A stretch of DNA of 64,000 nucleotides from an uncultured Fibrobacterales bacterium. Its GTDB lineage: Bacteria > Fibrobacterota > Fibrobacteria > Fibrobacterales > CAWVXU01. The DNA lies in the NCBI GenBank assembly GCA_963934255.1, contig CAWVXU010000004.1:1641-65640 (forward strand), in the 5' to 3' direction. This document shows, in pieces, positions 25,762-58,521 of the stretch (positions are counted from its first letter, which is position 1; each line of letters begins with the position of its first letter). The translations under genes were made by a program, and so were the position numbers. The notes under the pieces were generated by a model. It had not been told where the DNA came from. It did not search any database and worked only from the letters and a program-made list of their open reading frames with translations.

Positions 25762-25794
25762 ATCGCACAGTATGTCCAAAGAAATGAGCTTTTA

Positions 25795-27450: not shown

Positions 27451-27498
27451 AGCGAAAGTTATAGCGAAAGCGTAAGTGAAAGCGTAAGCGATGCGAGC
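27451..27498. repeat. Imperfect 12-nt tandem repeat (about 4 units)
   Basis: The units are AGCGAAAGTTAT / AGCGAAAGCGTA / AGTGAAAGCGTA / AGCGATGCGAGC. The array lies between the flgM stop and the next ORF and runs into that ORF's ATG. Confidence 0.6.
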
Positions 27499-28339
27499 AT
27501 TTAGTGAGAGCAAATTTCAAGTTTCAAAGCTGATGAGAATATTACTTATCGGTTTTTTGGGTTTTCTATTGGCAAATACCTACGCTGATGACAAATATCT
27601 TGCACCTTGGTTGATTAATTATGACGATGTGGAAAGACATGTTTTTATCAAAGAAAAGGGTGAAAGAAATAATCGAAGGTTCTCAACAGTCGAGTTTTAC
27701 TCCGGCAATATTTTTTTTGATTTAAACACGCAGAAAAAGACGTTATTGCTTAGTGGAAATAAAATTGTTCAAATGAGTCATTTTAATTGGTTTCAATGGG
27801 ACCAAACAGACCCGACGATTCGCTATTCAAGTGAATTTGGCATGTACGGTCCTAAGTTTATCCCTGTTTTTCAACAATATCATTCAATGGATAAGCAAAA
27901 TAATTTTAATCACTATCTTAGTATGGGCTATAAAACTTCTGAAATACCTATTCTTCATTATCAAAGTTCGGGCTTAGGAGTGGACAAAGTTGAACTCCGC
28001 TATGATAAGTTGTATTCTGAAGACATGTTGATTCCTTTATTGAGAAAAATGTTATGGGACAAAAAGAAAGAATTTGAAATGAACTTACTTGGGAATTTAT
28101 CAAACCCTCCAGGAAGTTTTCGAGTTCAATATGCTAAAGCCAAAGTCATGGATCGTCACTTTCCTATAAAAGAATTTGGTGATAACCATGTCGTATTGAT
28201 TCAAATCATTAGAGATGATGGTCGTTTAGCGAGTTATTGGTTTAGCCGAGAAGGTAATCATAGACTAATTAAAGCCATTTTACTTGATGGTTCAGTTTTA
28301 ACTCTGATTGATTATAAACGAATTAAAAAATCTAAATAA
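27491..28339 (+). CDS. Hypothetical secreted protein
   Basis: Signal peptide LLIGFLGFLLANTYA-DD. An alternative start is Met at 27533. I recognise no family. Confidence 0.6.
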   Translation: MRAFSESKFQVSKLMRILLIGFLGFLLANTYADDKYLAPWLINYDDVERHVFIKEKGERNNRRFSTVEFYSGNIFFDLNTQKKTLLLSGNKIVQMSHFNWFQWDQTDPTIRYSSEFGMYGPKFIPVFQQYHSMDKQNNFNHYLSMGYKTSEIPILHYQSSGLGVDKVELRYDKLYSEDMLIPLLRKMLWDKKKEFEMNLLGNLSNPPGSFRVQYAKAKVMDRHFPIKEFGDNHVVLIQIIRDDGRLASYWFSREGNHRLIKAILLDGSVLTLIDYKRIKKSK

Positions 28340-34821: not shown

Positions 34822-37800
34822 ATGAGTCAAAAAATTGTAGTGAGAAACGCCCAAGAACACAACCTTAAAGGTATCGATATTGATATCCCTCGGGATAGTA
34901 TGGTCGTTGTTACTGGTGTTAGCGGATCAGGTAAAAGTTCCTTAGCTTTTGATACACTGTTCCAAGAAGGGCAAAGAAAGTATATCGAGTCCCTCTCGGC
35001 ATATGCTAGACAATTTATTGGTACGATGAAGACTCCTAAGGTAGAGAGAATTGAAGGTATTAGTCCGACAATTTCCATCGATCAGAAGACAGTAAATAGA
35101 AATCCAAGATCAACCGTGGGAACCATTACTGAGATTTGGGATCACCTTAGATTGCTATTTGCAAGACTAGGAATTCCACATTGTCCCTCATGTGGGGATT
35201 TGATTCAGGCTCAAACAGTTTCACAAATAACTGACGGACTTCTTGTTGATTATTACGATGCCAAGCTCATTATTATGGCGCCTATTGTTCGAGAACGCAA
35301 AGGTGAATATCGTAAGGAATTGAGCGAGCTACAGCAAGCCGGCTTCGTTCGTGCGCGTATCGATGGAGAAATGCGTGAACTTGATGAAGACATTGTTTTA
35401 GCTAGATATGAAAAGCACAGTATTGATGTTGTGGTGGATCGTCTAGTGATTGAGGATAAAACTTTACCAAGAATTCGTGAATCTATAGAAGCTGCGCTTA
35501 AGCAGTCAGTTGATCTAGTCAGCTTTATGATTAATGATGAATATATGCTTCAAGGTACTTCACTTTCATGTTCTAAATGTCGCGTGACAATTCCTGAAAT
35601 TGAGCCGAGACTTTTTAGTTTTAATGACCCACAAGGTCAATGCTCTAGTTGTACTGGTCTTGGCTTCATTCAAGATTTTGAAATTGAATTGTTGATACCA
35701 GACCCGAGTCTTTCAATTGAGCAAGGTTGTATCAAAGCACAAATGGCTGAAGGCCATTTAATGTTTAGCCGTTATGGAATGCAAGAGTTTAAAATTCTAG
35801 CCAAGGAATATGGGTTTCAATTAAACGTGCCTTGGAATAAAATGTCTAAAAAGGCTAAGCACATTTTAATGTATGGTTCCGAAGATGAGCTGAAATTCAA
35901 ATTAAAACGTCGCGGTCGACGTGGTTTAAAAATTAAAGACGAGCATCGAAGGGTCAGGGGGTTTCTAGAAGTTTTACAGCGTGTTTGGAATCAATGGCAC
36001 ATTCCTATGATGAATAAATATATGCGCCGTACCGATTGCGACACTTGTCATGGTGATAAATTAAATACTGCGGCAATGGCGGTTCTATTTGAAGGAAATA
36101 ATATTCAAGAATTAAGTCGTCTCGGAGTTTCAGATGCGAGAAAACTTTTTGACCAATTTCCTCGCAATCCAAGAGAAGAAAAGATTGGTGGTGAATTGTT
36201 TAGTGAGATTCAATCAAGGTTAAGTTATTTAGATGAAGTTGGTTTGGGTTATTTAACATTAGATCGTGCCGCCAATACTTTGTCAGGCGGTGAGTCACAA
36301 CGGATTCGACTTGCTTCTCAAGTGGGTGCTGGTTTACAGGGCGTTACTTATATTCTTGATGAACCATCTATTGGGTTACATCCTCGTGATAATGAAAAAC
36401 TTTTGGAAATATTGCAACGATTAAAAAATCTAGGTAATACGCTTATCGTGGTTGAGCATGACGAAGATACGATGCTTCAAGCTGATCAGGTGATTGATAT
36501 TGGACCCGGGGCCGGTGTCGAAGGTGGTGAAATTTTAGCTTCTGGATCTTTGAAATCAATTGTCAATAATAAAAAGTCTATTACTGGAGCTTATCTCAGT
36601 GGTCGAGAAAAAATTGAAGTTCCAAGTATTCGCCGTGAGTTAAGTGCTGATTCGATTAAAGTAATTGGTGCCTGTGAAAATAACTTAAAAAATATTGATG
36701 TGGAATTCCCCTTAGGAGGAATGGTCACATTAACTGGAGTGTCAGGTTCTGGAAAGTCCACCTTGATGAATCAAATTCTTAAAAAGTCTTTGGCTCAAAC
36801 CTTGCATGGTGCAGAAGATGTTCCAGGAGCTCATCAAAAAATTGAAGGTGTTGGTTTTATTGATAAAGTCATAGAAATTGACCAAAGTGCTATAGGGAGA
36901 ACTCCAAGATCTAACCCGGCAACTTATACCAAAATTTGGGATGAGATTAGAAATCTATTTGCTCAACTCACTGAATCGCAAGTCCGAGGTTATTCTAAAG
37001 GTCGCTTTTCATTTAATGTGAATGGTGGACGGTGTGAAGAATGTGAAGGCGCCGGCGTCAATGTCATTGAGATGCAATTACTTGAAAATGTTCAAGTCCC
37101 TTGTGAATCTTGCAATGGGAAACGCTTTAATCCGGCTACTCTAGAGATTCATTTTAAGGGTAAGACTATTTCTGATATTCTAGGAATGTCGGTGAGTATC
37201 GCGCTAGAATTTTTTAAAGCCCACCCAAAGATTTATCGAGGATTAAAAATTCTTGAGGATATTGGATTGGGTTATCTTGAACTCGGTCAACCAAGTACCA
37301 CTCTTTCGGGCGGTGAAGCTCAAAGAATGAAGATTGCTTCTGAATTAAAAAAGCCAGAAAAAGGACACACTCTTTATCTTCTTGATGAACCAACAACTGG
37401 CTTGCATTTCCATGATATTAAGCGCCTCATTTCTTGTATGAATACCTTGGTGGATAGACAAAATTCCATGATTGTCATTGAGCATAATTTGGATGTAGTT
37501 AAAGTCTCTGATTGGGTGATCGATATGGGGCCCGATGGTGGAGACGGCGGCGGTGAGATAGTCTTTTGTGGTCGACCTGAGGATCTAGCCAAATGTAAGA
37601 AGTCAGATACGGGGAGATATTTAAAACCATTACTCAATCCAAAAAGAAACCCCAGTGAAGAACTTTTTACGAGTAAATCCTATCTAGAAACTCAAAAAAG
37701 ATTAAAAGAAAAGTCGAAAGAAAAAGTCGATCTAGATATACTCATTCAAGGTGCCAAAAAGCATAACTTAAAGAATATTGATGTGAGAATACCTAGACAT

Positions 37801-40248
37801 AAGTTGACGGTGTTAACAGGTGTCTCTGGCTCTGGTAAATCATCTCTTGCATTTCATACACTTTTTGCGGAAGGGCAACGACGCTTTGTTGAGAGTATGA
37901 GTACCTATGCGAGAAGATTTTTGGGTCAGATGGATCGTGGTGGAGTTGAAGCAATCCAAGGTCTAGCGCCATCTATTGCAATTGATCAGTCGAGCACCAA
38001 CAGAAGCCCTAGATCCACTGTGGCTACAATCACCGAGCTCTATGATTATTTCAGATTGTTATTTTCTCGAATAGGGAGGCCTCACTCCCCAGCTTCTGGT
38101 GGATTAATGGTACGATATAGCCATTTGGATCTATACAAAAAAGTGTTAAGAGAAAATGAAGGTGAAAACTTATTTATCATGGCTCCCGTTTTGCATCCTA
38201 GGATTAATCTAAACCTTATTGCAAAAGACCCTGCGAATTTAAAAGCACTTGTATCAAGGTTTTTGGAGTTAGGTTACAGACGCTTATGGGATGGTAGTCG
38301 TTGGATAATTTTAGATGAGGACACGAAACTTCCTAGTTTACAACAAGCTTGGCTTTTGATTGATAGAGTTAAAGTGGGTTCTAAAAATCGGGCGAGAATC
38401 ATTGAATCGTTTGAACAAGCTGAAGAGTATGGACATGGTCTGATTGCCTGTTCCGCTGGGAACCCAGAAGATGGCTTACCTATCAGTATTTACTCAAATT
38501 TTTATGGAAATAATGACGACCTATACTTCTTTGATGGTGAACTAGAGCCGAAACATTTCTCTTTTAATTCGCATTGGGGGGCATGTATCGTCTGCACTGG
38601 CCTTGGTTTTGTGGGGTCGAAAGTTTGTCCGTCTTGTGACGGTGATAGACTCAAGCCGGAATATAGTGCTGTTCTTGTGGGTGGCATTAATGTGACTGAA
38701 TTATCAAGAATGAGTATTGCCACTCTATTACAATTCTTTAAAGATTTAGAACTGTCTAAAACCGAAAACCTAATCGTTAAACAACTCTTGAAAGAGGTGA
38801 TGGGGCGTTTAGAATTTCTAGTAAAAGTGGGCCTTGATTATATCCAACTTGATCGCAGAGGTGATACTTTATCAGGAGGGGAGGCACAACGAATTCGTTT
38901 GGCATCTCAAATTGGCTCCGGTCTAGAAGGAGTACTTTATGTGCTAGATGAACCTACAGTGGGATTACACCAAAAAGACACAGACTTACTTCTACAGACT
39001 TTATTTCAATTGAGAAATCTGGGCAATACTGTCGTCGTGGTAGAACATGACTTAGAATTCATACGTCACTCTGATCACTTGATAGAGCTTGGACCAGGAG
39101 CCGGTGACCTTGGGGGTGAACTCATCGCCGAGGGTACACCTAAACAATTAGCAAGGAAAAAGAAGTCTCTTACTGGACAATACTTATCGGGTAAGAAACA
39201 ACTCGGCCTGGGCTATGGAGCAGAAGTAGAACAAATTGAAATGGTTGACTCATGGGTCACTTGGAATCAAATAAACTTTAGAAGTCTGAAAAATTTTGAC
39301 TTAAAAATACCACAAGGAGCCTTGACTGTGGTTACTGGTGTTTCAGGCTCAGGTAAGTCAACTTTGATAGAAGAGTGCTTATACCCACTTGCTTATGCCA
39401 AAATTAATAGAAAAAGAAAACCAAATAAAGAGTTTGGTGATATATCTTGGGATAGTGAATTTAAACAGGTTCAGTTAATTGATCAAAGCCCTATTGGTAA
39501 ATCACCAAGGTCAACTCCTATTACTTATACCAAAACATTTGATTTAGTTCGAGATTTATATGCTTCTTTAAATGAATCAAAAATAAAGGGCTATAACAAA
39601 GGTCGTTTCTCTTTTAATAAGGCGGAGGGACGATGTGCTGAGTGTGAAGGCAAGGGGTCTCACTATATCGAGATGCATTTTTTATCTGATGTTTGGGAGC
39701 TATGTGAATCATGCCAAGGGCAAAGGTATAATCAGGATACTTTAGCGATTAAATTTAAAGGTAAAAGTATTGCTGATGTCATGAGTATGAGGATTAACGA
39801 AGCAGTAGAGTTTTTTGAATCTCAACCCAAGATTGTTAAAACGCTTAAAACCTTCAAAGAAATTGGCCTCGGCTATCTCAAATTAGGTCAACCCGCAAAT
39901 ACTTTGTCTGGAGGTGAAGCTCAACGTTTGAAGCTTGCTGCAGAACTTGCTAAAGCAGGGCGGAGTCAAGGGCTGTTTTTGTTAGATGAGCCTACTACGG
40001 GGCTTCATATGGATGATATACAGAGGCTCTGGGCTTTACTTCGAAGATTAGTGAGTCAAGGTCACACCGTGGTTCTTATCGAACATCACCCAGAAGTCAT
40101 CGCTAAATCAGATTGGGTCATTGACCTTGGTCCTGTTGGTGGTGATTTGGGCGGAGAGCTATTGTTTTCAGGTTGGTCCAAAGATTTGTTGAAATTGAAA
40201 AAGAATGAGACCACTCAGGCTGTTTTAAAAGCAATGACGCATATGTAA
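34822..40248 (+). CDS. uvrA: Tandem-duplicated excinuclease ABC subunit A (UvrA-UvrA fusion, 1808 aa)
   Basis: One uninterrupted ORF. It has four Walker A motifs GVSGSGKS(S/T), with codons starting near nt 34915, 36736, 37819 and 39337. It has four ABC signatures LSGGE(S/A)QR and four Walker B motifs LDEP(S/T). Module A (938 aa) ends in the canonical GRYLKPLL. A Lys/Glu-rich linker follows at 37636-37728, then module B of about 839 aa. Confidence 0.9.
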   Translation: MSQKIVVRNAQEHNLKGIDIDIPRDSMVVVTGVSGSGKSSLAFDTLFQEGQRKYIESLSAYARQFIGTMKTPKVERIEGISPTISIDQKTVNRNPRSTVGTITEIWDHLRLLFARLGIPHCPSCGDLIQAQTVSQITDGLLVDYYDAKLIIMAPIVRERKGEYRKELSELQQAGFVRARIDGEMRELDEDIVLARYEKHSIDVVVDRLVIEDKTLPRIRESIEAALKQSVDLVSFMINDEYMLQGTSLSCSKCRVTIPEIEPRLFSFNDPQGQCSSCTGLGFIQDFEIELLIPDPSLSIEQGCIKAQMAEGHLMFSRYGMQEFKILAKEYGFQLNVPWNKMSKKAKHILMYGSEDELKFKLKRRGRRGLKIKDEHRRVRGFLEVLQRVWNQWHIPMMNKYMRRTDCDTCHGDKLNTAAMAVLFEGNNIQELSRLGVSDARKLFDQFPRNPREEKIGGELFSEIQSRLSYLDEVGLGYLTLDRAANTLSGGESQRIRLASQVGAGLQGVTYILDEPSIGLHPRDNEKLLEILQRLKNLGNTLIVVEHDEDTMLQADQVIDIGPGAGVEGGEILASGSLKSIVNNKKSITGAYLSGREKIEVPSIRRELSADSIKVIGACENNLKNIDVEFPLGGMVTLTGVSGSGKSTLMNQILKKSLAQTLHGAEDVPGAHQKIEGVGFIDKVIEIDQSAIGRTPRSNPATYTKIWDEIRNLFAQLTESQVRGYSKGRFSFNVNGGRCEECEGAGVNVIEMQLLENVQVPCESCNGKRFNPATLEIHFKGKTISDILGMSVSIALEFFKAHPKIYRGLKILEDIGLGYLELGQPSTTLSGGEAQRMKIASELKKPEKGHTLYLLDEPTTGLHFHDIKRLISCMNTLVDRQNSMIVIEHNLDVVKVSDWVIDMGPDGGDGGGEIVFCGRPEDLAKCKKSDTGRYLKPLLNPKRNPSEELFTSKSYLETQKRLKEKSKEKVDLDILIQGAKKHNLKNIDVRIPRHKLTVLTGVSGSGKSSLAFHTLFAEGQRRFVESMSTYARRFLGQMDRGGVEAIQGLAPSIAIDQSSTNRSPRSTVATITELYDYFRLLFSRIGRPHSPASGGLMVRYSHLDLYKKVLRENEGENLFIMAPVLHPRINLNLIAKDPANLKALVSRFLELGYRRLWDGSRWIILDEDTKLPSLQQAWLLIDRVKVGSKNRARIIESFEQAEEYGHGLIACSAGNPEDGLPISIYSNFYGNNDDLYFFDGELEPKHFSFNSHWGACIVCTGLGFVGSKVCPSCDGDRLKPEYSAVLVGGINVTELSRMSIATLLQFFKDLELSKTENLIVKQLLKEVMGRLEFLVKVGLDYIQLDRRGDTLSGGEAQRIRLASQIGSGLEGVLYVLDEPTVGLHQKDTDLLLQTLFQLRNLGNTVVVVEHDLEFIRHSDHLIELGPGAGDLGGELIAEGTPKQLARKKKSLTGQYLSGKKQLGLGYGAEVEQIEMVDSWVTWNQINFRSLKNFDLKIPQGALTVVTGVSGSGKSTLIEECLYPLAYAKINRKRKPNKEFGDISWDSEFKQVQLIDQSPIGKSPRSTPITYTKTFDLVRDLYASLNESKIKGYNKGRFSFNKAEGRCAECEGKGSHYIEMHFLSDVWELCESCQGQRYNQDTLAIKFKGKSIADVMSMRINEAVEFFESQPKIVKTLKTFKEIGLGYLKLGQPANTLSGGEAQRLKLAAELAKAGRSQGLFLLDEPTTGLHMDDIQRLWALLRRLVSQGHTVVLIEHHPEVIAKSDWVIDLGPVGGDLGGELLFSGWSKDLLKLKKNETTQAVLKAMTHM

Positions 40249-48637: not shown

Positions 48638-49114
48638 TTAGAAGGGTAAATCATCCTCTGGTGGCGGTGCATCCTTAAATGTTGGAGTCGAAGGCTGATT
48701 AAAACTTGGAGCAGAATCAAAACTTCCAGCACCTTGTTGGCCGTATCCACCTTGTTCGCCTGGAGCTCCACCTTGTCCACCAGATTTGCCACCAAGCATC
48801 TGCATACTATTACCGACAACCTCTGTTTTGTATTTTTTTACACCTGATGGGTCATCCCAACTAGAGGTTTGAAGTTTTCCTTCAATGTATACCGGAGAGC
48901 CTTTGCGAAGATATTGCTCAGCGATTTCACCTAGACGGTTCCATAGAATGATATTGACCCATTCTGTTTTCTCTTGTTGAGCACCGTTACGATCTTTGTA
49001 ACGTTCTGTGATTGCGATTGAAAATGACGCGACTTTTGCGCCTGATTGAGTCATCCTTACTTCAGGATCTCTTCCTAAATTTCCAATCAACATGACTTTA
49101 TTAAGTGATGCCAT
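48638..49114 (-). CDS. ssb: Single-stranded DNA-binding protein
   Basis: [18 protein letters not shown] (OB fold), a Gly/Gln-rich linker and the canonical acidic tip DDLPF. I prefer the ATG at 49114 (AAAGGA RBS). Confidence 0.93.
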
Positions 49115-49204
49115 GAAATGTCCTTTCATATATAGTAGCCGAAAATGCAAATCAAAGGTAACTTTATTTGCAAAGAATTAGTAGTGAACTCAAGAGAAGA
49201 TTTT

Positions 49205-50317
49205 ATGCAAAACCAAAGAGTAATACTTCCTATTGAAAAAATAGAGCAATTATGGCCCCAAGAGCTGAAAAATGCACGAATTGGTGCATTATTACATCCT
49301 GCTTCTATTTTGCCAAATTACCAACATACTTTAGACGTCCTCAATGAACAAAATGGTAAAATTTTTCAACTCAAGGCTCTTTTTGGGCCTCAACATGGAA
49401 TTTTGGGTCATACTCAAGATAACATGATTGAATGGGAAGGTTATTTAGACCCTGAGTTAGGAATACCAGTTTATTCTTTATATGGAGAACATCGACAACC
49501 GACAAAGGCAATGTATGAAGGCCTTGACGCAATACTGGTTGATTTACAAGATGTGGGTGCTCGTTATTATACTTTTATTTGGAGTCTTTACCTTTGTATG
49601 AAGACAGCGGAGGAAACAGGAATTCATATTGTAGTCTGTGATCGTCCCAATCCAATTAACTCTAAGGATAAAGAAGGTCCCATCCTTGATTTGGAATATT
49701 CGTCTTTTGTCGGCTTGCATTCAATCCCTGTCAGACATGGGAAAAACATCGGTGAATTAGCAGAACAATTCAAAAAAGAGTGCTTCCCTAGTGTTAAATT
49801 GACGGTATTGGAAATGGAAAATTATGACAAATCAATGTGGTTTGATCAAACAGGTCTTCCGTGGGTCTTGCCAAGTCCTAATATGCCAACACTAGATACA
49901 GCGACCGTATACCCTGGTATGTGCTTGCTGGAAGCGACCAATGTGAGTGAAGGACGCGGAACGACTAAGCCGTTTGAATTATTTGGTGCACCTTTTATTG
50001 ACGCCAATAAATTTGCTTCATACATGAATAGTCAAAATTTCCCTGGAGTTATTTTTAGAGAAGCTTATTTTCAACCGACCTTTCATAAAGGTGCCGGTAA
50101 AATATGCGCTGGTCTTCAATATCATGTTTTAGACCGAGATATTTTCAGATCATTTGAAGTCACTATTTCAATTTTAAGGTATTTATTTCATACTTACCCA
50201 GAAGACTTTAAGTGGCGCACCGAAGCTTATGAATATGAGTATGATAAACTTGCAATTGATATCCTACTTGGATCAAAAGATTATCGTCTGACTGAGATAG
50301 AAGGCAAATTACCTTAA
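49205..50317 (+). CDS. namZ: DUF1343 / NamZ-like exo-beta-N-acetylmuramidase
   Basis: ALFGPQHG, VYSLYGEHRQP and LVDLQDVGARYYTFIWSL are hallmark DUF1343 stretches as I remember them. No signal peptide is evident from either candidate start (49145 or 49205). Confidence 0.75.
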   Translation: MQNQRVILPIEKIEQLWPQELKNARIGALLHPASILPNYQHTLDVLNEQNGKIFQLKALFGPQHGILGHTQDNMIEWEGYLDPELGIPVYSLYGEHRQPTKAMYEGLDAILVDLQDVGARYYTFIWSLYLCMKTAEETGIHIVVCDRPNPINSKDKEGPILDLEYSSFVGLHSIPVRHGKNIGELAEQFKKECFPSVKLTVLEMENYDKSMWFDQTGLPWVLPSPNMPTLDTATVYPGMCLLEATNVSEGRGTTKPFELFGAPFIDANKFASYMNSQNFPGVIFREAYFQPTFHKGAGKICAGLQYHVLDRDIFRSFEVTISILRYLFHTYPEDFKWRTEAYEYEYDKLAIDILLGSKDYRLTEIEGKLP

Positions 50318-51111
50318 TGGATGTATTAATATTATGCGCAGGTTATGGGACAAGACTCGCGCCACTGACCGATAGAATACCTAAGCCATTGGTTCAAGTC
50401 TCTGATAAATTAAGTATCGAACACCAACTTGAAGCGATATCGTCCTTAGATCCTCAAAATGTATGGGTTAATGCACATCATTTGGCTGACAAGGTAAGGG
50501 CTTTTGTGGATGAGTGTGAATTGATTAATGATTGTTTTATAGAAGAAGAAATATTAGGAACAGGTGGCCCACTGAAGCGTGCTCTTGATGAGAAAAACTG
50601 TGATGATCTTTTAGTGATTAATGGCGATGTATTTCATGATCTAGATTTAGATAGCTTTATTGAAGCCTCAAGACAATCAGGTAAAGAATTTTCGCTGCTG
50701 ATGATGGACAATAAGTTGGTAAATTCGGTAGGAATACGTAATAATGAAATAATTTCTATAAAAGGCGTATATGGTGAAGAAAATGAAGTAGATTCATTGA
50801 AAACTTTTACCGGTATTTCTTGGTATTCAAAGAATGCGTTGAAAAAGCTCAAAGCAGAACATTTTTCAATTGTCAAATTTTGGAAAGACGAGTATTTATT
50901 GGAGAATTACCCATTTGCACAGGAGCAAAAGGCGACCTGGATTGATATCGGCACACCACAGGGTTTATGGGACGCAAGTCAAGCTAGGTGGATTGAATTA
51001 GGAGGCAACGCTTCATATAATTGGATTCAACTTGAAACCAAATCACCGGCCCCTAAAGATGAGGGACCCGGACTTTATGGACGTGACTTTCAATGGAAAA
51101 TAGAAGCTTAG
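50317..51111 (+). CDS. murU: Sugar-1-phosphate nucleotidyltransferase, MurU-like
   Basis: The N-terminal NTP-transferase motif is LILCAGYGTRLAPLTDRIPKPLV. Its start overlaps the namZ stop (TAATG). It is followed by an AmgK-like kinase gene. Confidence 0.6.
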   Translation: MDVLILCAGYGTRLAPLTDRIPKPLVQVSDKLSIEHQLEAISSLDPQNVWVNAHHLADKVRAFVDECELINDCFIEEEILGTGGPLKRALDEKNCDDLLVINGDVFHDLDLDSFIEASRQSGKEFSLLMMDNKLVNSVGIRNNEIISIKGVYGEENEVDSLKTFTGISWYSKNALKKLKAEHFSIVKFWKDEYLLENYPFAQEQKATWIDIGTPQGLWDASQARWIELGGNASYNWIQLETKSPAPKDEGPGLYGRDFQWKIEA

Positions 51112-51179
51112 ATGAATTCATCTCACACAAATGATTTGAAATAGAAGAAATAGAAGCAATAAAAGCAATAGGAACAGAA

Positions 51180-52157
51180 ATGAAATTAAAAAAAGACGAA
51201 ATCTCAAAAGAAATAATTGAAAAATTAGGTAATAGTTTAGACCCTAAAATAAGCAGTTTTGACCTAGTTGGCTCAGCGGCTTCTGGTCGTCAGTATTATA
51301 GAATACCGACAAAAACAGGGTCTAAGGTTTTAATGAAAACTTCTGAAGTTGATGATGACTTCAAGCGTTTTATTCAGATTCAAAAGTTTCTACAAAAGTT
51401 TGAGATTCGTGTTCCAAAGATTGAGCTTATTGATGAATCAAGTGAATCTATCTTATTAGAAGATCTTGGAGATAAAAATTTGTTAACTGTCATTGAGGGG
51501 CTTGATGTAGTAGGTCGTCAAAAGGCCTATTCTGAAGTTGTTGAGTCATTAGCGAGAGGGCATCTAAGTGTTGTTCGTAAAACTCAAGCAGAGCCCTTAT
51601 TACATGAACGTCATTTTGATTACCAAGATTTGAAATGGGAATCTCAATATTTTACAAAATGGTGTTTAGAAAAAAAGTTCCCAGAAACAGATTGGGCTGA
51701 TGTTGGAATCCAAAGAGCTTTTGATGCTTTAGCAATTGAAGTTCAGGATCACCCTTGGGATTTGATGCATCGTGACTTTCAATCACAAAATGTGATGCTC
51801 AAAGATGGTGAGTGGGTTTGGATTGATTTTCAAGGCGCCCGAATTGGGTCCACTTGGTATGATTTAGCTTCCCTTTTGTGGGACCCCTATGTCTGTCTGC
51901 CATTAGATGAAGTGAAGATGCATTTTGAAGCCTATTCTGAGCATAGGAATTTTACTGGGATGACTCAGTGGGATAATTTCTTAAATGCAAGTTTACAAAG
52001 AATCATGCAGGCCTGCGGTGCTTATGGTTATTTAACTGAAGTTAAGGGGCTCGAGGAATACGAGCAATATAAAGAAAAGGGTTGGCAACAATTACAATTG
52101 ATATTGGAACTTTGCTCAGACAGAGTTCGAGTAAAAAAATATCTAAAAGGTTTATAA
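51180..52157 (+). CDS. amgK: Aminoglycoside-phosphotransferase-fold anomeric sugar kinase, AmgK-like
   Basis: HRDFQSQNVMLKDGEWVWIDFQGARIGSTWYDLASLLWDPY matches the AmgK-type catalytic loop (HRD..S.N and IDFQ.A). Confidence 0.65.
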   Translation: MKLKKDEISKEIIEKLGNSLDPKISSFDLVGSAASGRQYYRIPTKTGSKVLMKTSEVDDDFKRFIQIQKFLQKFEIRVPKIELIDESSESILLEDLGDKNLLTVIEGLDVVGRQKAYSEVVESLARGHLSVVRKTQAEPLLHERHFDYQDLKWESQYFTKWCLEKKFPETDWADVGIQRAFDALAIEVQDHPWDLMHRDFQSQNVMLKDGEWVWIDFQGARIGSTWYDLASLLWDPYVCLPLDEVKMHFEAYSEHRNFTGMTQWDNFLNASLQRIMQACGAYGYLTEVKGLEEYEQYKEKGWQQLQLILELCSDRVRVKKYLKGL

Positions 52158-52238
52158 TAATGCTTTTATAAATTGAAGTGAATAATTTGAAGACATTAAG
52201 TCAAAAAAATAGATTAGATATTTAGATTAAAGGAATTC

Positions 52239-53357
52239 TTAGAGTTCCTTTTTCTGTTTTATTATGGATGTATAAACATCCTGTTGTAATTGAGAAATTT
52301 TTGACCAGCTGAAATTCTCAGCAAATAATTTTGCCTTTAGACTCATGTCGTTTAGTCTTTGCTCATCATTAATAAGTTCAATAATTTTATTGACCAAGTC
52401 AATTTGATTATCAAATAGAACACCTGTTTTGTTCTCTTGGAGTGTGAGTCTTAATCCTGGTATGTTTGATGCAATTACAGGAGTGCCGCAGGCTTGAGCT
52501 TCTAGGGATGAAATACCCCAACTTTCATATCGTGAAGGCATTATTAACAGTTTAGACTCTTGTAATAATGTTTTTTTGTTTGAACCGCTGACAAAAGGAA
52601 TAACTTTGATAAAATCACCTAAATTAAGCTCGTAGATTCTTGTTTTAATTTGGACTTCATCTTTTCCTTTACCTGCAAGGATAATTTTAAAATCGGGTAG
52701 TTTCTTTTTTAACTCAAGGGCAATATTCAGAAGCCGATCAATACCTTTTTGTTGTATTTCAAATCTGCCCAAAAAGAGAAGTTGGTTTTTTTTCTGAACA
52801 GTAGATTTTTTGTCTAAATAGTTATCCTCAACTCCATTATAAACAATGAATTCATGTTGAAATTTTGATGAAATGAATTGATGGACTTGAGTTTGTAAAT
52901 CTTCTGATGAGTAGAGTATGTTGTGAATTTTTTGATAACTCTTTGCTTCAAAAATACCAGCTAGTTTACCTAAAAATCCAAGCTTATCTTTAAGTACTTG
53001 AGGTCCAAAATAGTTTTGAGATATAAATAGAAGTTTTTCTTGTGCAATAAAGTTTTTTAAAAAAAGAGGGGAGAACGGAGAATAGTCTTCAATTATGAGG
53101 TCAAATTCTGAATGATTATTTTTGATGAAGCTCCTGGCTGAACGGAAATATTCAAATCGACTTAATAAATAATTTTTTCTTGGTCGGCCAAGAAATTTTT
53201 GGTTTTGTGTGACATTGGCTTCAGGATAGTTCGCTGAAAAAACTTGGACATTCCAATTTTTGGGGAAATGCTTGTTGATTTCTTGAGCTCGCACAGCTCC
53301 ACCACCACCTAGCCAAGGGTTGTCAATGGAGTCATATAAAAAGTGGGCAATTTTCAT
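52239..53357 (-). CDS. Glycosyltransferase family 4 (GT-B, retaining)
   Basis: It has the PSRYESWGISSLEAQACGTPVIASNIPG (EX7E region) motif. I prefer the ATG at 53357 (MKIAHFLY), which forms an ATGA overlap with the upstream gene's stop. Confidence 0.85.
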   Translation of the reverse strand: MKIAHFLYDSIDNPWLGGGGAVRAQEINKHFPKNWNVQVFSANYPEANVTQNQKFLGRPRKNYLLSRFEYFRSARSFIKNNHSEFDLIIEDYSPFSPLFLKNFIAQEKLLFISQNYFGPQVLKDKLGFLGKLAGIFEAKSYQKIHNILYSSEDLQTQVHQFISSKFQHEFIVYNGVEDNYLDKKSTVQKKNQLLFLGRFEIQQKGIDRLLNIALELKKKLPDFKIILAGKGKDEVQIKTRIYELNLGDFIKVIPFVSGSNKKTLLQESKLLIMPSRYESWGISSLEAQACGTPVIASNIPGLRLTLQENKTGVLFDNQIDLVNKIIELINDEQRLNDMSLKAKLFAENFSWSKISQLQQDVYTSIIKQKKEL

Positions 53358-54070
53358 GCTTTTTTTGTTGCAAGTAATATTGGGTTTCCACCTAAGCTCG
53401 TTTTTAATCTGCCCGCAACTCTTTCTAAAAGAGATGCCCATTTTTGTGTACTAAGTGGGACAGAAGTTTGATCAACAATGTCAAAGCCATTGGCCTCAAC
53501 AATTTCTCTAAAAGCAGCGTAAGTAAAATCCCTGATGTGCCCCGAAGAGTGTAATGATTTTCTAAACGGATTACCATAATTTGATTTTCTACATGATACT
53601 TCTGTTGCAAGTGGTTGTAATCCAAACACAATAAAAATTTTGTTTAAAATAGAAGAAAGGTTAGGCGTACTAATAATGAGATTTCCACCTGGCTTTAACA
53701 CTCGGTTTATCTCAATCAGAAGTCGGTCTGTATCAAAGACATGCTCAATGATTTCAGTACAAATGACTGTGTCAAATGTGTTTTCTTCCCAAGGAATGTT
53801 GTCGGTGTTTAAATCACAAGCACGAGCATCATCTAAGAAGTCCATAGCGGGCTTCATAATATCTAAATTTAGGTCAATCCCACAGATCTCACCTTGATAA
53901 TTTTTGCGGTATTCTTGTGTTGTGAGGCCCTCCCAAACGCCAATTTCTAGCAGTTTACCACTCGTAGGGAGGAAAGAAATCACTTTATCAACGCGATCAT
54001 TTTTATGATCTTCTTTTTCCATTTTTTTTAAATAGCGGTCATTAACAAAATTTTTATTTTCAAATTCCAT
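53354..54070 (-). CDS. Class I SAM-dependent methyltransferase
   Basis: Motif I variant LLEIGVWEG, a FDTVICTEIIEHV post-II region and LKPGGNLIISTPN. Confidence 0.8.
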   Translation of the reverse strand: MEFENKNFVNDRYLKKMEKEDHKNDRVDKVISFLPTSGKLLEIGVWEGLTTQEYRKNYQGEICGIDLNLDIMKPAMDFLDDARACDLNTDNIPWEENTFDTVICTEIIEHVFDTDRLLIEINRVLKPGGNLIISTPNLSSILNKIFIVFGLQPLATEVSCRKSNYGNPFRKSLHSSGHIRDFTYAAFREIVEANGFDIVDQTSVPLSTQKWASLLERVAGRLKTSLGGNPILLATKKA

Positions 54071-54085
54071 AAAAACATCAAAGGT

Positions 54086-55069
54086 TTAAGCCCTTGCCTC
54101 CTTGGGGATCAAAATATAAGTCAGCAGTCCTAAGAATGCTTGGAAAACCATCAAAAGGTATGCCAATAAGCTGACTTGCAGACAATGTGAATCACTTACG
54201 CCACTTAATTGCCCCAATATATAGATACTCGTAGCTTCTCTAAGTCCTACTCCCCCGATACTGATCGGGAGGTATAAGAGTAAGCTAAGTACAGAAAAGT
54301 AGATAGCGTTATCCCAAAAGGATATTTCAGCTCCAACTCCTTGATAAAAAAGAAGTTGAATAATAGATATAAGAATTTGTATTAAAAAAGAATACATCAA
54401 AGCAAGCCCGAGAGTTTTAGGTTGTTTGACTGTAGCTTGAATGTGATGGATAGATGCTTTGAAAACTTTAAATGGTATAAATTTAGCAACCCAATTTGAT
54501 TTGAAAATAGTGATCAGACAAAAGAGAAAAACGAGCAATGAAATTATACTCAGTGGAAGGTAAGTAGACTCTGGAAGAAGCTCTCTCGATGAAAAAGGTA
54601 GTGAAACCCACATTAAGAGCATCATCATTGATAGACCTAGAATCTTCGCAAAGACAATAGAGCCAATACTTTCTGATTTGGCTTCTATTACTTTTCCTAA
54701 TGAATATGATTTAATAATATCAGCTCCAACTCCAAGGGGAACCGCTAAATTAAGCGCATATCCGTAAAGTATATACTTAAGTAAAAAGGGGAAAGTGATT
54801 GAATTACCGTGTTTGAGTAATAATATTTTCCACCTTAGTCCTTGTAATAAAACAATTACCAGGGAAATAAGTAGACCGCTGAGTACATGGAAAACACTAA
54901 TGTTTTTTAACTCATCAATTACTTGATGATAATCAAATTTTTTAGTCACAAAATAAATTAGTCCGAAGCTAATGATTACTTTGAGTGCTGTTAGTGTGTG
55001 CTTCAATGTTAACTCATTTTTCTGATGTATTGAGAATTGAATTATTATTGCTTTTCCATGCATAGGCAA
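54086..55069 (-). CDS. Flippase-like (UPF0104 / LPG-synthase-TM family) membrane protein
   Basis: Polytopic. The N-terminal pattern KKFDYHQVIDELKNISVFHVLSGLLISLVIVLLQGLRWKILL is characteristic of this family. The true start may be downstream, because the track start overlaps the upstream gene by 56 nt. Confidence 0.6.
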   Translation of the reverse strand: MPMHGKAIIIQFSIHQKNELTLKHTLTALKVIISFGLIYFVTKKFDYHQVIDELKNISVFHVLSGLLISLVIVLLQGLRWKILLLKHGNSITFPFLLKYILYGYALNLAVPLGVGADIIKSYSLGKVIEAKSESIGSIVFAKILGLSMMMLLMWVSLPFSSRELLPESTYLPLSIISLLVFLFCLITIFKSNWVAKFIPFKVFKASIHHIQATVKQPKTLGLALMYSFLIQILISIIQLLFYQGVGAEISFWDNAIYFSVLSLLLYLPISIGGVGLREATSIYILGQLSGVSDSHCLQVSLLAYLLMVFQAFLGLLTYILIPKEARA

Positions 55070-57584
55070 TTAGACCTATAAGAATAGCAAGTCCAAGATA
55101 GACCCATTTTTTGGTAGAACGAACTGATTCACTAATAAATTGAACCGTTATATTTGAACTCCCTTGAGGAATTTCAAAAGCTAATAGGGTATGAAATGCT
55201 TTAAGAGGTGGCGTTTGTACTCCATTAACCATTATGACCCAATCTTTATGAAAGTTTTCATTAAAAAGAATATAACCAGATGATTCCGATTGTGTCTTCA
55301 TCTCATAGAAATCGGAGCTATTTGAACTTGTTATAGTGGATGTAGCTTTTGGTAGCGGTAATTCTGTTCTAGTTATTTGACCCAAACTATCTGTTTGAGT
55401 AATTGGGTTGGGACGCTCTATGGTCTTGATGTCATCATGCAGCTCTTTATCAAGAATGATTGTATTTTGATAGTCTGATTTACCAGATTTTAAGTAGGTC
55501 GGGATATCAATGTTTTTTCGTTTTTCGGAATAATGAAAAACAGTTGTGCGCGCAAAGGCCGAATCATTTTGAATGATTTGATTTTGCCCATTTCTATTTC
55601 TTACAATCAGAGATTTAGCTCCTAATAAATTCAAGAATGGGTTACTTTGAATGTTTTTTAAGCTTGCCCCTAGTTGTAGTTTATACAATAAATTTTCTGA
55701 ACTACGACCGCCTTTAAATGATCGAAAACTTGATAACTTATTATCATGATCACCTTGTAAAAATCTCAAGCCAAAATAAGGTCCGAAATTTGAGTTTATA
55801 GATTGGCCGTTAATATTGAATACTCGATATGAATTTAAGCTATCGGTATTGAGTGCTTTGATGGGTTGAGAAAAAGACTCCGCGGGTGGTAGTTTTGATG
55901 ATCGATCCAGAGTGACATTAAATGGGTTAAGAATCATTAAATTAGTTCCTAGACCAAGAATGAAAAACGCGATTAAAATTTGTGTTTGATCTTTGTGTAT
56001 TTTTAAGACGAAGTAAGTGAGACCTGAACAAAAAACAAGCCAAATAAAACTCGTGATAGTATTTCCGGGTGCCAAGGCGATTAAGTTAAGTTTTTCACCT
56101 GCTAAAGGGGTAAAGTATGGTGCTGCTTCGAATGATGGCCCATGAGAAAATCCAAGTAAAAGAATAGATAATAGAGGAACTGCTAGTCCCAGCCAAACGG
56201 ATTTGGGAACGTCTTTTAAACTATTAAAGTGCGTCTTAACTATGTATAAAATAAAAGCAACAAACAAAATGGAAGCAAATCCAGCTAAGCCACCCTTGGC
56301 ACTCGGCCATTGAAACCGGAGTAATGTGAGAATGAAACCTAATGCAATCAAAGTAGCAAAGGGTTTCCAGTTCAGGTTTGATCGGAGAGTTTCAATTTTG
56401 GGGAAATAAACTAAAATTTGAGAAGCGGAGATAAGGAGTAGAACGGGAATCCAAAATAAAACCATTGATGGTGCACGAAAACTTTTTGCTCCTGGGATAA
56501 TTTCATAAAATAGTTTAAATAGGGGAGTATCAGCACCAACTGAATAGATCACAAGTAGACTCATTGCTGAGACGAGAAAGAGACTTTGTTTCCAAAAGCG
56601 GCTTGAAAATAATCCAATAATTCCCAAAATTAATAAAACAAGCCCTGGTGAATCGTGATTGAGTTTAAAATGATTGTGGCCCCAGTATGGGTTTTCCATT
56701 GTATTAGACTTCGGGCTAGGTAGAGAATAACCTACAAAGTTTGGAAGAATCATTGATGCAGTCTCTTCAAAATGATTTGACCAAGATGCGGAGTGACCAA
56801 AGGATTGCTGTTGGGCATCCGAGCGCACTGATTGGGTCGTGGTATATTCATAGGGAGGGATGATTTGCAAGGAACAAAGACCCAGGCCTGCAATGAGGGC
56901 AATGCCGATTAAAACTTGTCTTTGAACTTTTAATTTATTAGAGGATTTTGTGTCATTGATGAAATTTTCAAATAGACTAAAGAATAAAATACCCCAGAGA
57001 AAAAAGTAACCGAGTTGAATGTGGCCCATGATGGCCCAAACGGAAGTAAAAGCAAATATTGGAAGACCCCAAGTCCAATTTTCTCGACAATACTTGATAA
57101 TTGCGTATGCACCTAGAGGAGCGATGGCAATAACCATCATTTTCCCATCATGCCCAGGATAAATGTGAGTGAAAAATTGTGGATTAAGAGCAAATAAAGA
57201 TGCAAGAAGTCCGCCAATTCTCCAATCTTTAGTTAAATAACTTCCCAATATATAAGCGCTAATAAAGCCGCTAAGCAGTGTAGTGGCGAACATCCATGCG
57301 AGAGAACGAGCAGGGTCCATCAATAATTGTAAAAAGGTGATTGGGTGGTAAGGGGAGCCATAGGTTGCATCTAAAGTCGGATAACCGCCAATTTTACTAG
57401 GGTCCCAATGCGGTAACCAGAAACTTGTTCTGAACCATTTGCCACCAATGTGATTGAGCTGGTCTTGAGACATAATTAATTGATTGGAATCAAATAGGGC
57501 ATCCTTCATCAAAAAGCTAATGATAACCGCAAATGAGAGAGTCAAAAGGCCAAAATATTTTAGATTTAGTGGTGTTGCTTTCAA
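55014..57584 (-). CDS. Large polytopic membrane protein, YfhO-like (GT-C-type glycosyltransferase candidate)
   Basis: 856 aa with more than 12 predicted TM helices, followed by a ~300-aa extracytoplasmic C-terminal domain and a final TM helix. This architecture and the N-terminus resemble the YfhO family. The assignment rests on recollection only. Confidence 0.5.
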   Translation of the reverse strand: MKATPLNLKYFGLLTLSFAVIISFLMKDALFDSNQLIMSQDQLNHIGGKWFRTSFWLPHWDPSKIGGYPTLDATYGSPYHPITFLQLLMDPARSLAWMFATTLLSGFISAYILGSYLTKDWRIGGLLASLFALNPQFFTHIYPGHDGKMMVIAIAPLGAYAIIKYCRENWTWGLPIFAFTSVWAIMGHIQLGYFFLWGILFFSLFENFINDTKSSNKLKVQRQVLIGIALIAGLGLCSLQIIPPYEYTTTQSVRSDAQQQSFGHSASWSNHFEETASMILPNFVGYSLPSPKSNTMENPYWGHNHFKLNHDSPGLVLLILGIIGLFSSRFWKQSLFLVSAMSLLVIYSVGADTPLFKLFYEIIPGAKSFRAPSMVLFWIPVLLLISASQILVYFPKIETLRSNLNWKPFATLIALGFILTLLRFQWPSAKGGLAGFASILFVAFILYIVKTHFNSLKDVPKSVWLGLAVPLLSILLLGFSHGPSFEAAPYFTPLAGEKLNLIALAPGNTITSFIWLVFCSGLTYFVLKIHKDQTQILIAFFILGLGTNLMILNPFNVTLDRSSKLPPAESFSQPIKALNTDSLNSYRVFNINGQSINSNFGPYFGLRFLQGDHDNKLSSFRSFKGGRSSENLLYKLQLGASLKNIQSNPFLNLLGAKSLIVRNRNGQNQIIQNDSAFARTTVFHYSEKRKNIDIPTYLKSGKSDYQNTIILDKELHDDIKTIERPNPITQTDSLGQITRTELPLPKATSTITSSNSSDFYEMKTQSESSGYILFNENFHKDWVIMVNGVQTPPLKAFHTLLAFEIPQGSSNITVQFISESVRSTKKWVYLGLAILIGLIAYAWKSNNNSILNTSEK

Positions 57585-57594
57585 AAGTAGTCTC

Positions 57595-58521
57595 CTATTT
57601 TTTTTGACCTGTGATCAAAAAGAGAGGTAGTCCATTTTCAATGGACATTTGTTCAAGTTTAATATCAATAAAATTTTGTTCTGTCAGTAATTTACAGATT
57701 TCCTCTGCTTCAAAGCCTAACCAAAGGTCACCTAGCTTCTCTCTCGTCCATTCTTGATCATGCTTAAGCATATCAATGATGATGAATCGTCCGTTGGGAG
57801 CCAAAACTCTTGATAACTCTTGGAGAGCTAAAGAGGGTTGCGCAGAATGATGCAGTACTTGGCTCATAAAAACTAAGTCAGCAGACAGATCGTTTACTGG
57901 AAGTTGATCAACATCTCCGATACTAGCAGTAATATTGGATAAGTTTTGAATTTTGGCCTGAGCTTGCACATGTTCTAACATTTTTGGACTAATATCAATC
58001 GCGGTTACTTTTTCACAAGAGCGAGCTAATAATAAACTCAGGTCGCCTTCGCCACAACCAACATCAATGACATTTTTGGATTTAATGCACCAGGCAAGAC
58101 CGCGCAGTAAAGCTTCTAGTCCACCACCTGGTGCAACGAGGTTGTGATAATCACCAGCTAGCTCATCAAAAAATTCTTGAGTTTTACCTCGACGAGCATT
58201 GAGAGTATCTTGGATTTTTAATTCTAAAGCTTCTATCCCGGGGAGCCCAGCCCAAGTGGACTCCAAAATGGCTTTGATCTCAGGACTCGTGCGAAGTTTG
58301 TCAGACCATCGGTTAAAAACCAAAGTCCCTTCTCGTCTGTCTTGTAACAGCTCAGACTCACGAAGTTGATTGAGATGTCTTGAAATATTACTCTGGTGGA
58401 GGTCTAGAATTTGAACCATTTCACCCACGGTAAACTCAGCATCCTTAAGTAGAACCAGTATTTTAAGCCGATTTTCATCGGCAATGACTTTTAATAATTT
58501 TAGAGATGGGCTCAGTTTCAA
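57595..58521 (-). CDS. ArsR/SmtB-family HTH fused to a SAM-dependent methyltransferase domain
   Basis: The N-terminal wHTH reads LKVIADENRLKILVLLKDAEFTVGEMVQILDLHQSNISRHLNQL. The C-terminal methyltransferase motif I is VIDVGCGEGDLS, with NGRFIIIDM. Confidence 0.85.
   Translation of the reverse strand: MKLSPSLKLLKVIADENRLKILVLLKDAEFTVGEMVQILDLHQSNISRHLNQLRESELLQDRREGTLVFNRWSDKLRTSPEIKAILESTWAGLPGIEALELKIQDTLNARRGKTQEFFDELAGDYHNLVAPGGGLEALLRGLAWCIKSKNVIDVGCGEGDLSLLLARSCEKVTAIDISPKMLEHVQAQAKIQNLSNITASIGDVDQLPVNDLSADLVFMSQVLHHSAQPSLALQELSRVLAPNGRFIIIDMLKHDQEWTREKLGDLWLGFEAEEICKLLTEQNFIDIKLEQMSIENGLPLFLITGQKK

Follow-up and report, generated by a model that had tools for sequence, protein, structure and literature searches.

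Can the N-acetylmuramic acid (MurNAc) of a bacterial cell wall be returned to wall synthesis by the products of three adjoining genes? The question is raised by a locus on a 64,000-nucleotide stretch of DNA, hereafter referred to as the window, from an uncultured Fibrobacterales bacterium (GenBank assembly GCA_963934255.1, contig CAWVXU010000004.1). Encoded there, in order and on the plus strand, are a NamZ-like protein with the DUF1343/glycoside hydrolase family 171 (GH171) fold (49205..50317, 370 residues), a single-domain sugar-1-phosphate nucleotidyltransferase similar to MurU (50317..51111, 264 residues), and an anomeric sugar kinase of the aminoglycoside phosphotransferase (APH) fold similar to AmgK (51180..52157, 325 residues). 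The latter two resemble the enzymes of the AmgK-MurU(-MupP) recycling shortcut of Pseudomonas putida and Pseudomonas aeruginosa, as it is outlined through the citations of Gisin et al. 2013 in PMC11957156 and PMC8054146. There, too, an APH-fold anomeric kinase is found beside a minimal sugar-1-phosphate nucleotidyltransferase, and the expected product is UDP-MurNAc, formed with MurA and MurB bypassed. Our favored answer, which we hold to be probable though well short of certain, is that the three genes constitute one operon for the cytoplasmic salvage of MurNAc to UDP-MurNAc. It rests on their organization, conservation, fusion, and family placement, and the substrate assigned to each enzyme is a predicted one.

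The preliminary description of this locus, made from the DNA letters and a list of reading frames, had called attention to three consecutive plus-strand genes, and the open reading frames bear it out (49145/49205-50317, 50317-51111, and 51180-52157). All of the peptides it quoted are present, namely LVDLQDVGARYYTFIWSL in the NamZ-like protein and HRDFQSQNVM and IDFQGARIG...YDLASLL in the kinase. Likewise, TAATG is found at 50315-50319 of the raw sequence, such that the stop codon of the NamZ-like gene overlaps the ATG of the nucleotidyltransferase gene. The gene order, this one-nucleotide stop/start overlap, and the gap of 68 nucleotides between the nucleotidyltransferase and kinase genes fit a single transcript. 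A terminator-like hairpin followed by a T-run is located at 52229..52251 (strand unassigned; found by consensus scan only), between the stop codon of the kinase gene and that of a convergent glycosyltransferase gene. This is probably where the operon ends, although the evidence is weak in that six terminator-like sites were observed in the scanned region versus 2.1 expected. The longest open reading frame of the NamZ-like gene begins at 49145 and encodes 390 residues, of which the 20 additional ones are not hydrophobic. The preliminary description placed the start at 49205, which corresponds to Met21 of that frame and is to be preferred, given that relatives begin at the equivalent methionine (for example, locus L003). 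In Pfam searches all three proteins score above the gathering cutoffs, with 245 bits for NamZ_N (PF07075; cutoff 26.9), 151 bits for NamZ_C (PF20732; cutoff 25), 63 bits for NTP_transferase (PF00483), and 64 bits for APH.

A kinase-family alignment scan, with one genome per species, returned 80 loci, nine of which lie on contigs too short to evaluate. The complete trio is found at 41 of them, with the nucleotidyltransferase and kinase fused in 31 and separate in 10. A further 11 loci contain only the nucleotidyltransferase and the kinase, and 19, mostly from rumen and gut Fibrobacter, contain only the kinase. With the exception of one rearranged locus (L035), the 41 trio loci share the same gene order on one strand. 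Within the Nitrospirota, including Thermodesulfovibrionia and Nitrospira, the trio is present at 27 of the 28 evaluable loci, and other carriers are Elusimicrobiota, Thermodesulfobacteriota, and non-rumen Fibrobacterota. Because the same order is retained in relatives with kinase identities of 69% and 38%, and in 41 of the 80 species-representative genomes from several phyla, the arrangement is not due to chance.

The fused proteins are of particular relevance to the pairing of the second and third genes. A single polypeptide of ~620 residues that combines nucleotidyltransferase and kinase is the rule in Nitrospirota (L039-L087, e.g., L056:5044-6894), and such fusions are also encountered in Elusimicrobiota, Victivallales, Hydrogenedentes, and some Fibrobacteraceae. 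One example (P0112) is a fusion of 514 residues whose gene adjoins one coding for a SpoIID domain. No other family is conserved beside the trio, the commonest neighbor being present in five of ~40 loci. The trio is a self-contained module, widely inherited or transferred, and it is not peculiar to the window genome. Its spread over Nitrospirota, Elusimicrobiota, Fibrobacterota, and further phyla is that of an ancient and mobile unit.

Profile and fold comparisons place the kinase in the AmgK family as a divergent member, and its substrate is predicted from that placement. Its top two NCBIfam matches are the AmgK models NF045759 (62 bits) and NF045698 (32 bits), with the next family, CotS, appearing at an E-value of 1e-7, nine orders of magnitude weaker. 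Its blastp scores are 82 bits with Acinetobacter AmgK and 93 bits with Bacteroides AmgK; these two give just 38 bits with one another, so that each of them is nearer to the window kinase than to the other. The AlphaFold2 (AF2) model of the kinase has a pLDDT of 94, and its best fold match in the PDB is 3csv, with a TM score of 0.75 and an E-value of 3e-13 (the next match is at ~1e-8). The same entry is also the best sequence match in the PDB (1e-13), and it is itself of the AmgK type, with a score of 239 bits on NF045698 that equals that of the tsaE-linked kinase of Sphingomonas. The catalytic H197-R-D199...N204 (the HxDxxxxN loop) and the metal-binding D216 are invariant in 29 homologs. The AmgK-like character claimed in the preliminary description is therefore upheld by both the best profiles and the best structure, neither of which places the protein in another APH clade.

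Searches with tblastn for the kinase in a plasmid and chromosome collection rich in aminoglycoside-resistance APH genes led to 19 records. Every one comes from the Proteobacteria or Bacteroidota, among them Acinetobacter, Neisseria, Legionella, Sphingomonas, Bacteroides, Parabacteroides, and Xanthomonas. Sinorhizobium and Rhizobium are also included, and in these the kinase match adjoins tsaE. Those matches in the collection that are annotated are generic "phosphotransferase" genes or lie beside tsaE or RapZ, and a match to the MurU-like nucleotidyltransferase accompanies that of the kinase in at least six of the 19 records. Several relatives of the kinase, including one inside a trio (P0100), carry the JGI label "N-acetylmuramate 1-kinase." Across the 71 evaluable kinase loci, a MurU-type nucleotidyltransferase is adjacent or fused in 52, these being the 41 trios and the 11 loci with the nucleotidyltransferase and kinase only.

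A variation in domain structure was observed in Bacteroides finegoldii (L178:3426-4856), in which a RapZ-like domain is joined to the C-terminus of an AmgK-type kinase, as is also the case in Parabacteroides (H35). The 476-residue Bacteroides protein is annotated as "RNase adapter RapZ," but its N-terminal 330 residues match the AmgK models and a MurU-like nucleotidyltransferase follows it. The annotation is probably misleading.

The nucleotidyltransferase consists of a single domain, with neither an LbH nor any other additional domain. Its N-terminal region displays the nucleotide-binding motif G-x-G-T-R-x(8)-P-K (CAGYGTRLAPLTDRIPK), and an IDIGTP motif is also present. The best NCBIfam match, covering its full length, is the MurU model NF045761 with 96 bits, followed by Arch_glmU with 66 and HddC with 64. 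Fusion to an AmgK-like kinase is observed in 31 of the 41 trio loci, in seven further loci, and in the 514-residue protein noted above. The profile searches placed neither the kinase in a non-AmgK APH clade nor the nucleotidyltransferase in a GlmU/RmlA-type clade.

For the first protein of the trio, membership in the DUF1343/NamZ family is accompanied by a match to PDB entry 4k05 in phmmer (E-value of 5e-54). The AF2 model (pLDDT of 78) retrieves only 4k05 and 4jja at E ≤ 0.001. No signal peptide had been seen in the preliminary description, and this is correct, for the N-terminus is not hydrophobic with either start. Signal peptides are present on the characterized enzymes BsNamZ of Bacillus subtilis, TfNamZ1-3, and BfNamZ, and those characterized as NamZ (BsNamZ, TfNamZ1, and TfNamZ2) are all exported and of the Glu type, that is, with a glutamate at the position discussed below. 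Thus far the family is known only for MurNAc-specific exo-glycosidases (PMC8054146; bioRxiv 10.1101/2021.12.02.470905). The notion that the missing signal peptide is unusual was considered and rejected, since Glu-type DUF1343 proteins without one occur in Halorussus, Streptomyces, Paenibacillus, and Deinococcus. Such homologs are encoded in peptidoglycan-fragment utilization clusters, where their partners are anmK, nagZ, BadF-type kinases, SIS (MurQ-like) proteins, and ABC importers, and hence there is precedent for cytoplasmic action on imported fragments.

Is the NamZ-like protein, then, a typical NamZ? The family and the fold are those of NamZ, as first claimed, but at one position it departs from the characterized enzymes. 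That position is Glu92 of BsNamZ, which we take to be the glutamate of the conserved GPEHG motif. The entry 4k05 has GPEHG at the site aligned with the window motif, GPQHGILGHTQDNMIEW, and the window protein has a glutamine at the Glu92 position (GPQHG, together with a TQDNMIEW loop). In BsNamZ, Glu92 is located at the tip of strand β2 and was proposed to be catalytic, with Arg279 pointing into the cleft, yet it was called only a "putative" catalytic residue (Mueller et al., PMC8054146). All 41 trio-linked copies, across phyla, have the glutamine in the pattern GPQHG...Q(D/A)NM(I/V)E, and none of the 41 has a signal peptide. The seven other DUF1343 proteins compared, from 4k05, Halorussus, Streptomyces, Paenibacillus, Deinococcus, Parabacteroides, and Burkholderia, all have the glutamate.

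At E ≤ 1e-30, an exhaustive search for NamZ-like proteins gave ~2,000 cluster representatives, of which the nearest 150 were typed; 38 are of the Gln type and 101 of the Glu type. The loop Q(D/A)NM(I/V)E(W/S/T) is found in all 38 Gln-type representatives. A signal-like N-terminus occurs in none of them and in 20 of the 101 Glu-type representatives. Most of the other conserved polar residues are common to both types (D133, Q135, D136, R140, the DRPNP motif, H198, E263, and the SxGRG motif). Positions specific to the Gln type include N93, M94, and W97, as well as 275, where the residue is basic. The arginine of SEGRG (position 271 in the 390-residue numbering), which is equated with Arg279 of BsNamZ by alignment only, is invariant in the Gln type and present in six of the seven Glu-type proteins. 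Across the 41 linked copies, conservation reaches 93% or more at over 100 positions. Judged from these alignments, the NamZ-like protein belongs to a distinct, large, and uncharacterized Gln-type subfamily, the chemistry of which may differ from that of characterized NamZ.

With the three families so placed, the following route is envisaged. The signal-less NamZ-like protein would liberate MurNAc in the cytoplasm from a wall fragment taken up by the cell; its substrate is uncertain, the most conservative candidate being a fragment with MurNAc at its non-reducing end, such as MurNAc-β-1,4-GlcNAc, where GlcNAc is N-acetylglucosamine. The AmgK-like kinase would then, on the basis of family membership, phosphorylate MurNAc at C1, the GlcNAc released along with it probably being a second substrate. 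Finally, as suggested by its best profile, by fusion, and by synteny, the MurU-like nucleotidyltransferase would convert MurNAc-α-1-phosphate and UTP to UDP-MurNAc, which would rejoin wall synthesis downstream of MurA and MurB.

Recycling of the cell's own wall is a more likely function than predation. The predatory or peptidoglycan-scavenging lifestyle raised in the preliminary description found no support; the same trio is widespread in free-living phyla such as the Nitrospirota, and for that reason it says nothing about predation or the scavenging of foreign walls. Neither was any evidence for MurNAc auxotrophy found in the window. Genes for MurA/MurB, AnmK, MupP, NagZ, and AmpG were not found in the region extending from 18 kb to ~11 kb beyond the end of the window, the segment from 1 to 18 kb being partly annotated.

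Several observations weigh against the proposed salvage route, and those concerning its first step are considered here first. Diderm bacteria mainly produce 1,6-anhydro-muropeptides, which offer no terminal MurNAc glycoside to a classical NamZ. In addition, with the glutamine at the Glu92 position in every linked copy, hydrolysis of a MurNAc glycoside by the NamZ-like protein is only putative. Because the anhydro-muropeptides of diderms cannot be cleaved by a classical exo-muramidase and the putative catalytic glutamate is absent, the first step is the weakest link of the pathway, and exo-muramidase activity is not to be assumed for a protein with a glutamine at that site.

These same facts lend some weight to a different first step. 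The Gln-type protein might not be an exo-muramidase at all, and might rather break the intramolecular β-glycosidic (1,6-anhydro) linkage within anhydroMurNAc and so yield MurNAc directly, thereby replacing the ATP-consuming AnmK together with MupP; in variants of this scheme it would be an inverting enzyme that releases the α-anomer needed by AmgK, or a phosphorylase. We regard this as unlikely. In its favor are the universal glutamine, the invariant subfamily loop, the basic residue at 275, and the retention of the rest of the pocket, as well as the absence of a signal-like N-terminus from all 38 Gln-type representatives. Moreover, neither anmK nor mupP was found beside any trio among the ~40 loci, and the turnover products of diderms are established to be anhydro-sugars. 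In a small sample, the cytoplasmic Glu-type homologs are accompanied by anmK or by MurK/MurQ-type genes, and the copies linked to AmgK/MurU are all of the Gln type; this pattern of partners is consistent with a division of function, though no proof of one. In the searchable literature neither the catalytic residues nor the stereochemistry of GH171 were found to be established. On the other hand, any such alternative activity is hypothetical. The catalytic role of Glu92 is itself only putative, and the glutamine may be benign, with other shared acids (D136, D166, or E263) carrying out catalysis. Further, the AF2 model is of low confidence precisely in the diagnostic Gln loop, residues 64-76, such that the catalytic geometry cannot be read from it. 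If a Gln-type NamZ with such a new activity did operate with MurU and AmgK, the outcome would be a self-contained three-enzyme anabolic route without AnmK and MupP, shared by Nitrospirota, Elusimicrobiota, Fibrobacterota, and others, a prospect that we likewise judge to be doubtful.

The remaining steps of the proposed MurNAc salvage are also open to objections. The scores of the kinase on the AmgK equivalog models, 62 and 32 bits, are to be set against cutoffs of 550 and 500. A calibration bears on these numbers. An AmgK-type kinase from Bacteroides finegoldii scores 64 and 39 bits, equal to the window kinase, and Acinetobacter AmgK scores 246 bits, which is below the cutoff even though it adjoins a MurU that passes its own. 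This shows that the AmgK equivalog cutoffs are lineage-narrow. With respect to the nucleotidyltransferase, the 96 bits on the MurU model compare with a cutoff of 250, and a phmmer search of the PDB ranks GMPPB and HddC above MurU. Its best tblastn match is a nucleotidyltransferase in a polysaccharide cluster of Azospirillum, and in blastp it scores 90 bits against this non-MurU protein versus ~70 for the MurU references. In a fused Nitrospira protein, the nucleotidyltransferase domain ties between Arch_glmU (86.3 bits) and MurU (86.8 bits). The claim of a MurU is supported by the best profile and by the fusion to the kinase, but the protein is not separable from other sugar-1-phosphate nucleotidyltransferases by these comparisons. 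Indeed, because they are ambiguous, the association with the kinase, in particular by fusion, is the strongest argument for a MurU-like role.

This ambiguity is the starting point for a second alternative, in which the kinase and the nucleotidyltransferase would activate another sugar (GlcNAc, another N-acetylhexosamine, or a sugar of a surface glycan) and the NamZ-like protein would trim an unrelated glycan. The module would then salvage nucleotide sugars without MurNAc at its center. AmgK is known to accept GlcNAc as well, and the trio adjoins a cluster of the glycosylation type in the lineage of the window and in related Fibrobacterota; that cluster, however, lies on the opposite strand and is not linked to the trio outside the Fibrobacterota. 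The presence of DUF1343 genes in haloarchaea, which lack murein, might also be taken as a sign of other substrates, but the haloarchaeal gene sits with anmK, nagZ, and a peptidoglycan-recognition amidase, a context of murein scavenging. Given further that the kinase matches AmgK-type proteins only, that the characterized DUF1343 enzymes are all MurNAc-specific, and that the candidate lactyl-binding arginine is kept, we think it improbable that another sugar is the substrate.

The haloarchaeal locus deserves a brief description of its own. On the plasmid NZ_CP100002.1 of Halorussus vallis, a murein-fragment utilization cluster extends from 191195 to 204241 (L090) and contains an anhydro-MurNAc kinase, a peptidoglycan-recognition amidase, a signal-less Glu-type DUF1343 protein, NagZ, and two GH18 proteins. 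Similar DUF1343 genes are found on plasmids of Haladaptatus and other haloarchaea. Haloarchaea themselves make no murein.

The idea that the NamZ-like protein is a dead pseudoenzyme, serving AmgK and MurU as a sugar-binding, regulatory, or scaffold partner and supplying no substrate to them, takes its appeal from the fact that Glu to Gln is the classical inactivating change of glycosidases and is fixed in the subfamily, but it is very improbable in light of the strong conservation of the 41 copies (which extends to the majority of those polar residues that active NamZ also has), the invariant loop that points to a functional active site, and the persistence of the Gln type, unlinked to kinase and nucleotidyltransferase, in Chthoniobacterales and Fibrobacter.

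The final set of objections to the salvage operon concerns linkage. No transporter, amidase, or nagZ gene was found to be conserved beside the trio in the ~40 loci. The linkage itself is labile: among 64 NamZ-anchored metagenome loci with enough room, a nucleotidyltransferase and/or kinase lies downstream in only four. These 64 loci are dominated by two lineages, a Chthoniobacterales soil lineage and rumen Fibrobacter. A relative with a NamZ 72% identical to that of the window (L182) keeps ssb and namZ and is without the nucleotidyltransferase and the kinase at that location. A genome of the Chthoniobacterales (L080) has the nucleotidyltransferase-kinase pair at a locus without NamZ. In view of the four loci in 64, the linkage is to be called frequent rather than obligatory, and the idea of an obligate three-gene unit was dropped.

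The 743-residue gene that follows NamZ in L182 was considered as a hidden nucleotidyltransferase-kinase fusion and was rejected; it codes for an unrelated protein with a signal-like N-terminus. The Chthoniobacterales-like soil loci (L116-L175, ~50 in number) display a fixed order of their own, consisting of lnt, a PGM-like gene, NamZ, a gene for a 247-residue protein, and a Mut7-C gene. In 50 loci the 247-residue gene, for which there is no Pfam match (e.g., L152:3293-4036), overlaps the stop codon of the Gln-type NamZ gene. Its product could be a lineage-specific partner of NamZ.

How does the trio compare with known systems? The AmgK/MurU shortcut underlies an intrinsic tolerance to fosfomycin, and it is a workhorse for the labeling of peptidoglycan with MurNAc probes. 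Its known points of entry are the combined action of AnmK and MupP, or imported free MurNAc. As in the window, the kinase and nucleotidyltransferase genes are adjacent in the reference pairs from Acinetobacter and Sphingomonas (tsaE-amgK-murU). The order differs, however, with the nucleotidyltransferase preceding the kinase in the window and the kinase preceding the nucleotidyltransferase in the references, and the window proteins are only 26-30% identical to their reference counterparts and are often fused in relatives. Further, a NamZ-like glycosidase is encoded upstream in the window, whereas the Pseudomonas scheme obtains its MurNAc by way of AnmK and MupP. NamZ has been described as "mostly missing" where the anabolic route exists (Mueller et al., PMC8054146).

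The salvage pathway of Tannerella forsythia (NamZ1/NamZ2, MurT/AmpG, and AmgK/MurU or MurK/MurQ) is similar in that an enzyme of the exo-muramidase family frees MurNAc or disaccharides for activation by AmgK/MurU (bioRxiv 10.1101/2021.12.02.470905), and its AmgK and MurU have been put to experimental use (PMC13041923). The AmgK type of the Bacteroidota, the phylum to which T. forsythia belongs, is also the one nearest to the window kinase in blastp. The NamZ proteins of Tannerella and Bacteroides, however, are periplasmic and of the Glu type, with signal peptides, whereas that of the window is cytoplasmic, of the Gln type, and translationally coupled to the nucleotidyltransferase. Moreover, the NamZ genes of Tannerella and Bacteroides are not adjacent to amgK/murU, and in Parabacteroides the genes are ~107 kb apart. 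BsNamZ (YbbC, the founding member of GH171, encoded in murQ-murR-murP-amiE-nagZ-namZ) shares with the window protein both Pfam domains, the fold, most of the pocket residues, and the equivalent of Arg279. Yet it is secreted, has Glu92, and feeds the catabolic MurP/MurQ, whereas the window protein is signal-less, has GPQHG, and is linked to anabolic enzymes. The signal-less Glu-type DUF1343 proteins of Halorussus, Paenibacillus, Deinococcus, and Streptomyces plasmids are alike in being cytoplasmic and encoded beside enzymes for muropeptide sugars, but they keep [GS]PEHG, and the partners already named (anmK, nagZ, BadF-type kinase, SIS or MurQ-like protein, and ABC importers) are catabolic.

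The trio also occurs in other phyla than the Pseudomonas and Tannerella routes. No account of such an operon or of the Gln subfamily turned up in full-text searches that combined NamZ, DUF1343, or GH171 with AmgK or MurU. What is new here is the conserved linkage of NamZ, nucleotidyltransferase, and kinase, along with the Gln subfamily, the salvage end product UDP-MurNAc being established biology. For a large, previously unexamined part of the bacterial tree, the finding is the opposite of the largely mutual exclusion of NamZ and the anabolic route reported by Mueller et al., in that a gene of the NamZ family, in a form without the presumed catalytic residue, is co-inherited and translationally coupled with the pair of MurU and AmgK, itself often a fusion. 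It provides a testable three-gene module for the recycling of wall sugars in environmentally important phyla that are hard to culture, including nitrite oxidizers, Thermodesulfovibrionia, and Fibrobacterota. Study of the Gln-type subfamily would settle which residues catalyze the reaction in GH171, and the natural bifunctional MurU-AmgK fusions could serve as labeling tools.

The surroundings of the trio are as follows. Proteins identical to those of the locus are found in ENA, Logan, and Tara Oceans assemblies, and the Tara Oceans records make a marine origin likely. The species-representative genomes returned no relative of the kinase above 41% identity, and the nearest named homologs of the NamZ-like protein, at 64-69% identity, are from Fibrobacterales, Fibromonadaceae, and Fibrobacter metagenome-assembled genomes. 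In the relatives with 69% and 38% kinase identity, synteny is kept across ssb on the minus strand, the trio, and the convergent cluster. Together with the NamZ homologs, this synteny points to a probable affiliation with the Fibrobacterota. The ssb gene (48638-49150, minus strand) is the divergent neighbor of the NamZ-like gene, and since the longest open reading frames of the two would run into each other at the 5' side, shorter starts are the more probable ones. This pairing is retained in Fibrobacterota relatives (L003, L008, and L182) even without the nucleotidyltransferase and the kinase.

The convergent cluster, at 52239-58521 on the minus strand, encodes a GT4 glycosyltransferase, an S-adenosylmethionine (SAM) methyltransferase, a flippase-like LPG_synthase_TM protein, an 856-residue membrane protein, and an ArsR-methyltransferase fusion. 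The 856-residue protein is predicted to be multi-pass and has no family match, with only a faint YfhO signal. The cluster may be an envelope glycosylation system. It is not conserved with the trio outside the Fibrobacterota, and no evidence of a functional tie between the two was found.

Elsewhere in the window, genes for an ATPase and a platform protein of the T2SSE/T2SSF type, belonging to either a type IV pilus or a type II secretion system, are located at 24706-26991 (plus strand) and 27491-28339, with a FlgM-like gene nearby. A tandem (double) UvrA of 1808 residues is encoded at 34822-40248 on the plus strand. Its residues 2-939 match the UvrA model with 2315 bits, and further ABC ATPase domains extend to residue 1769, with the 1809-residue PRK00635 model being matched in part.

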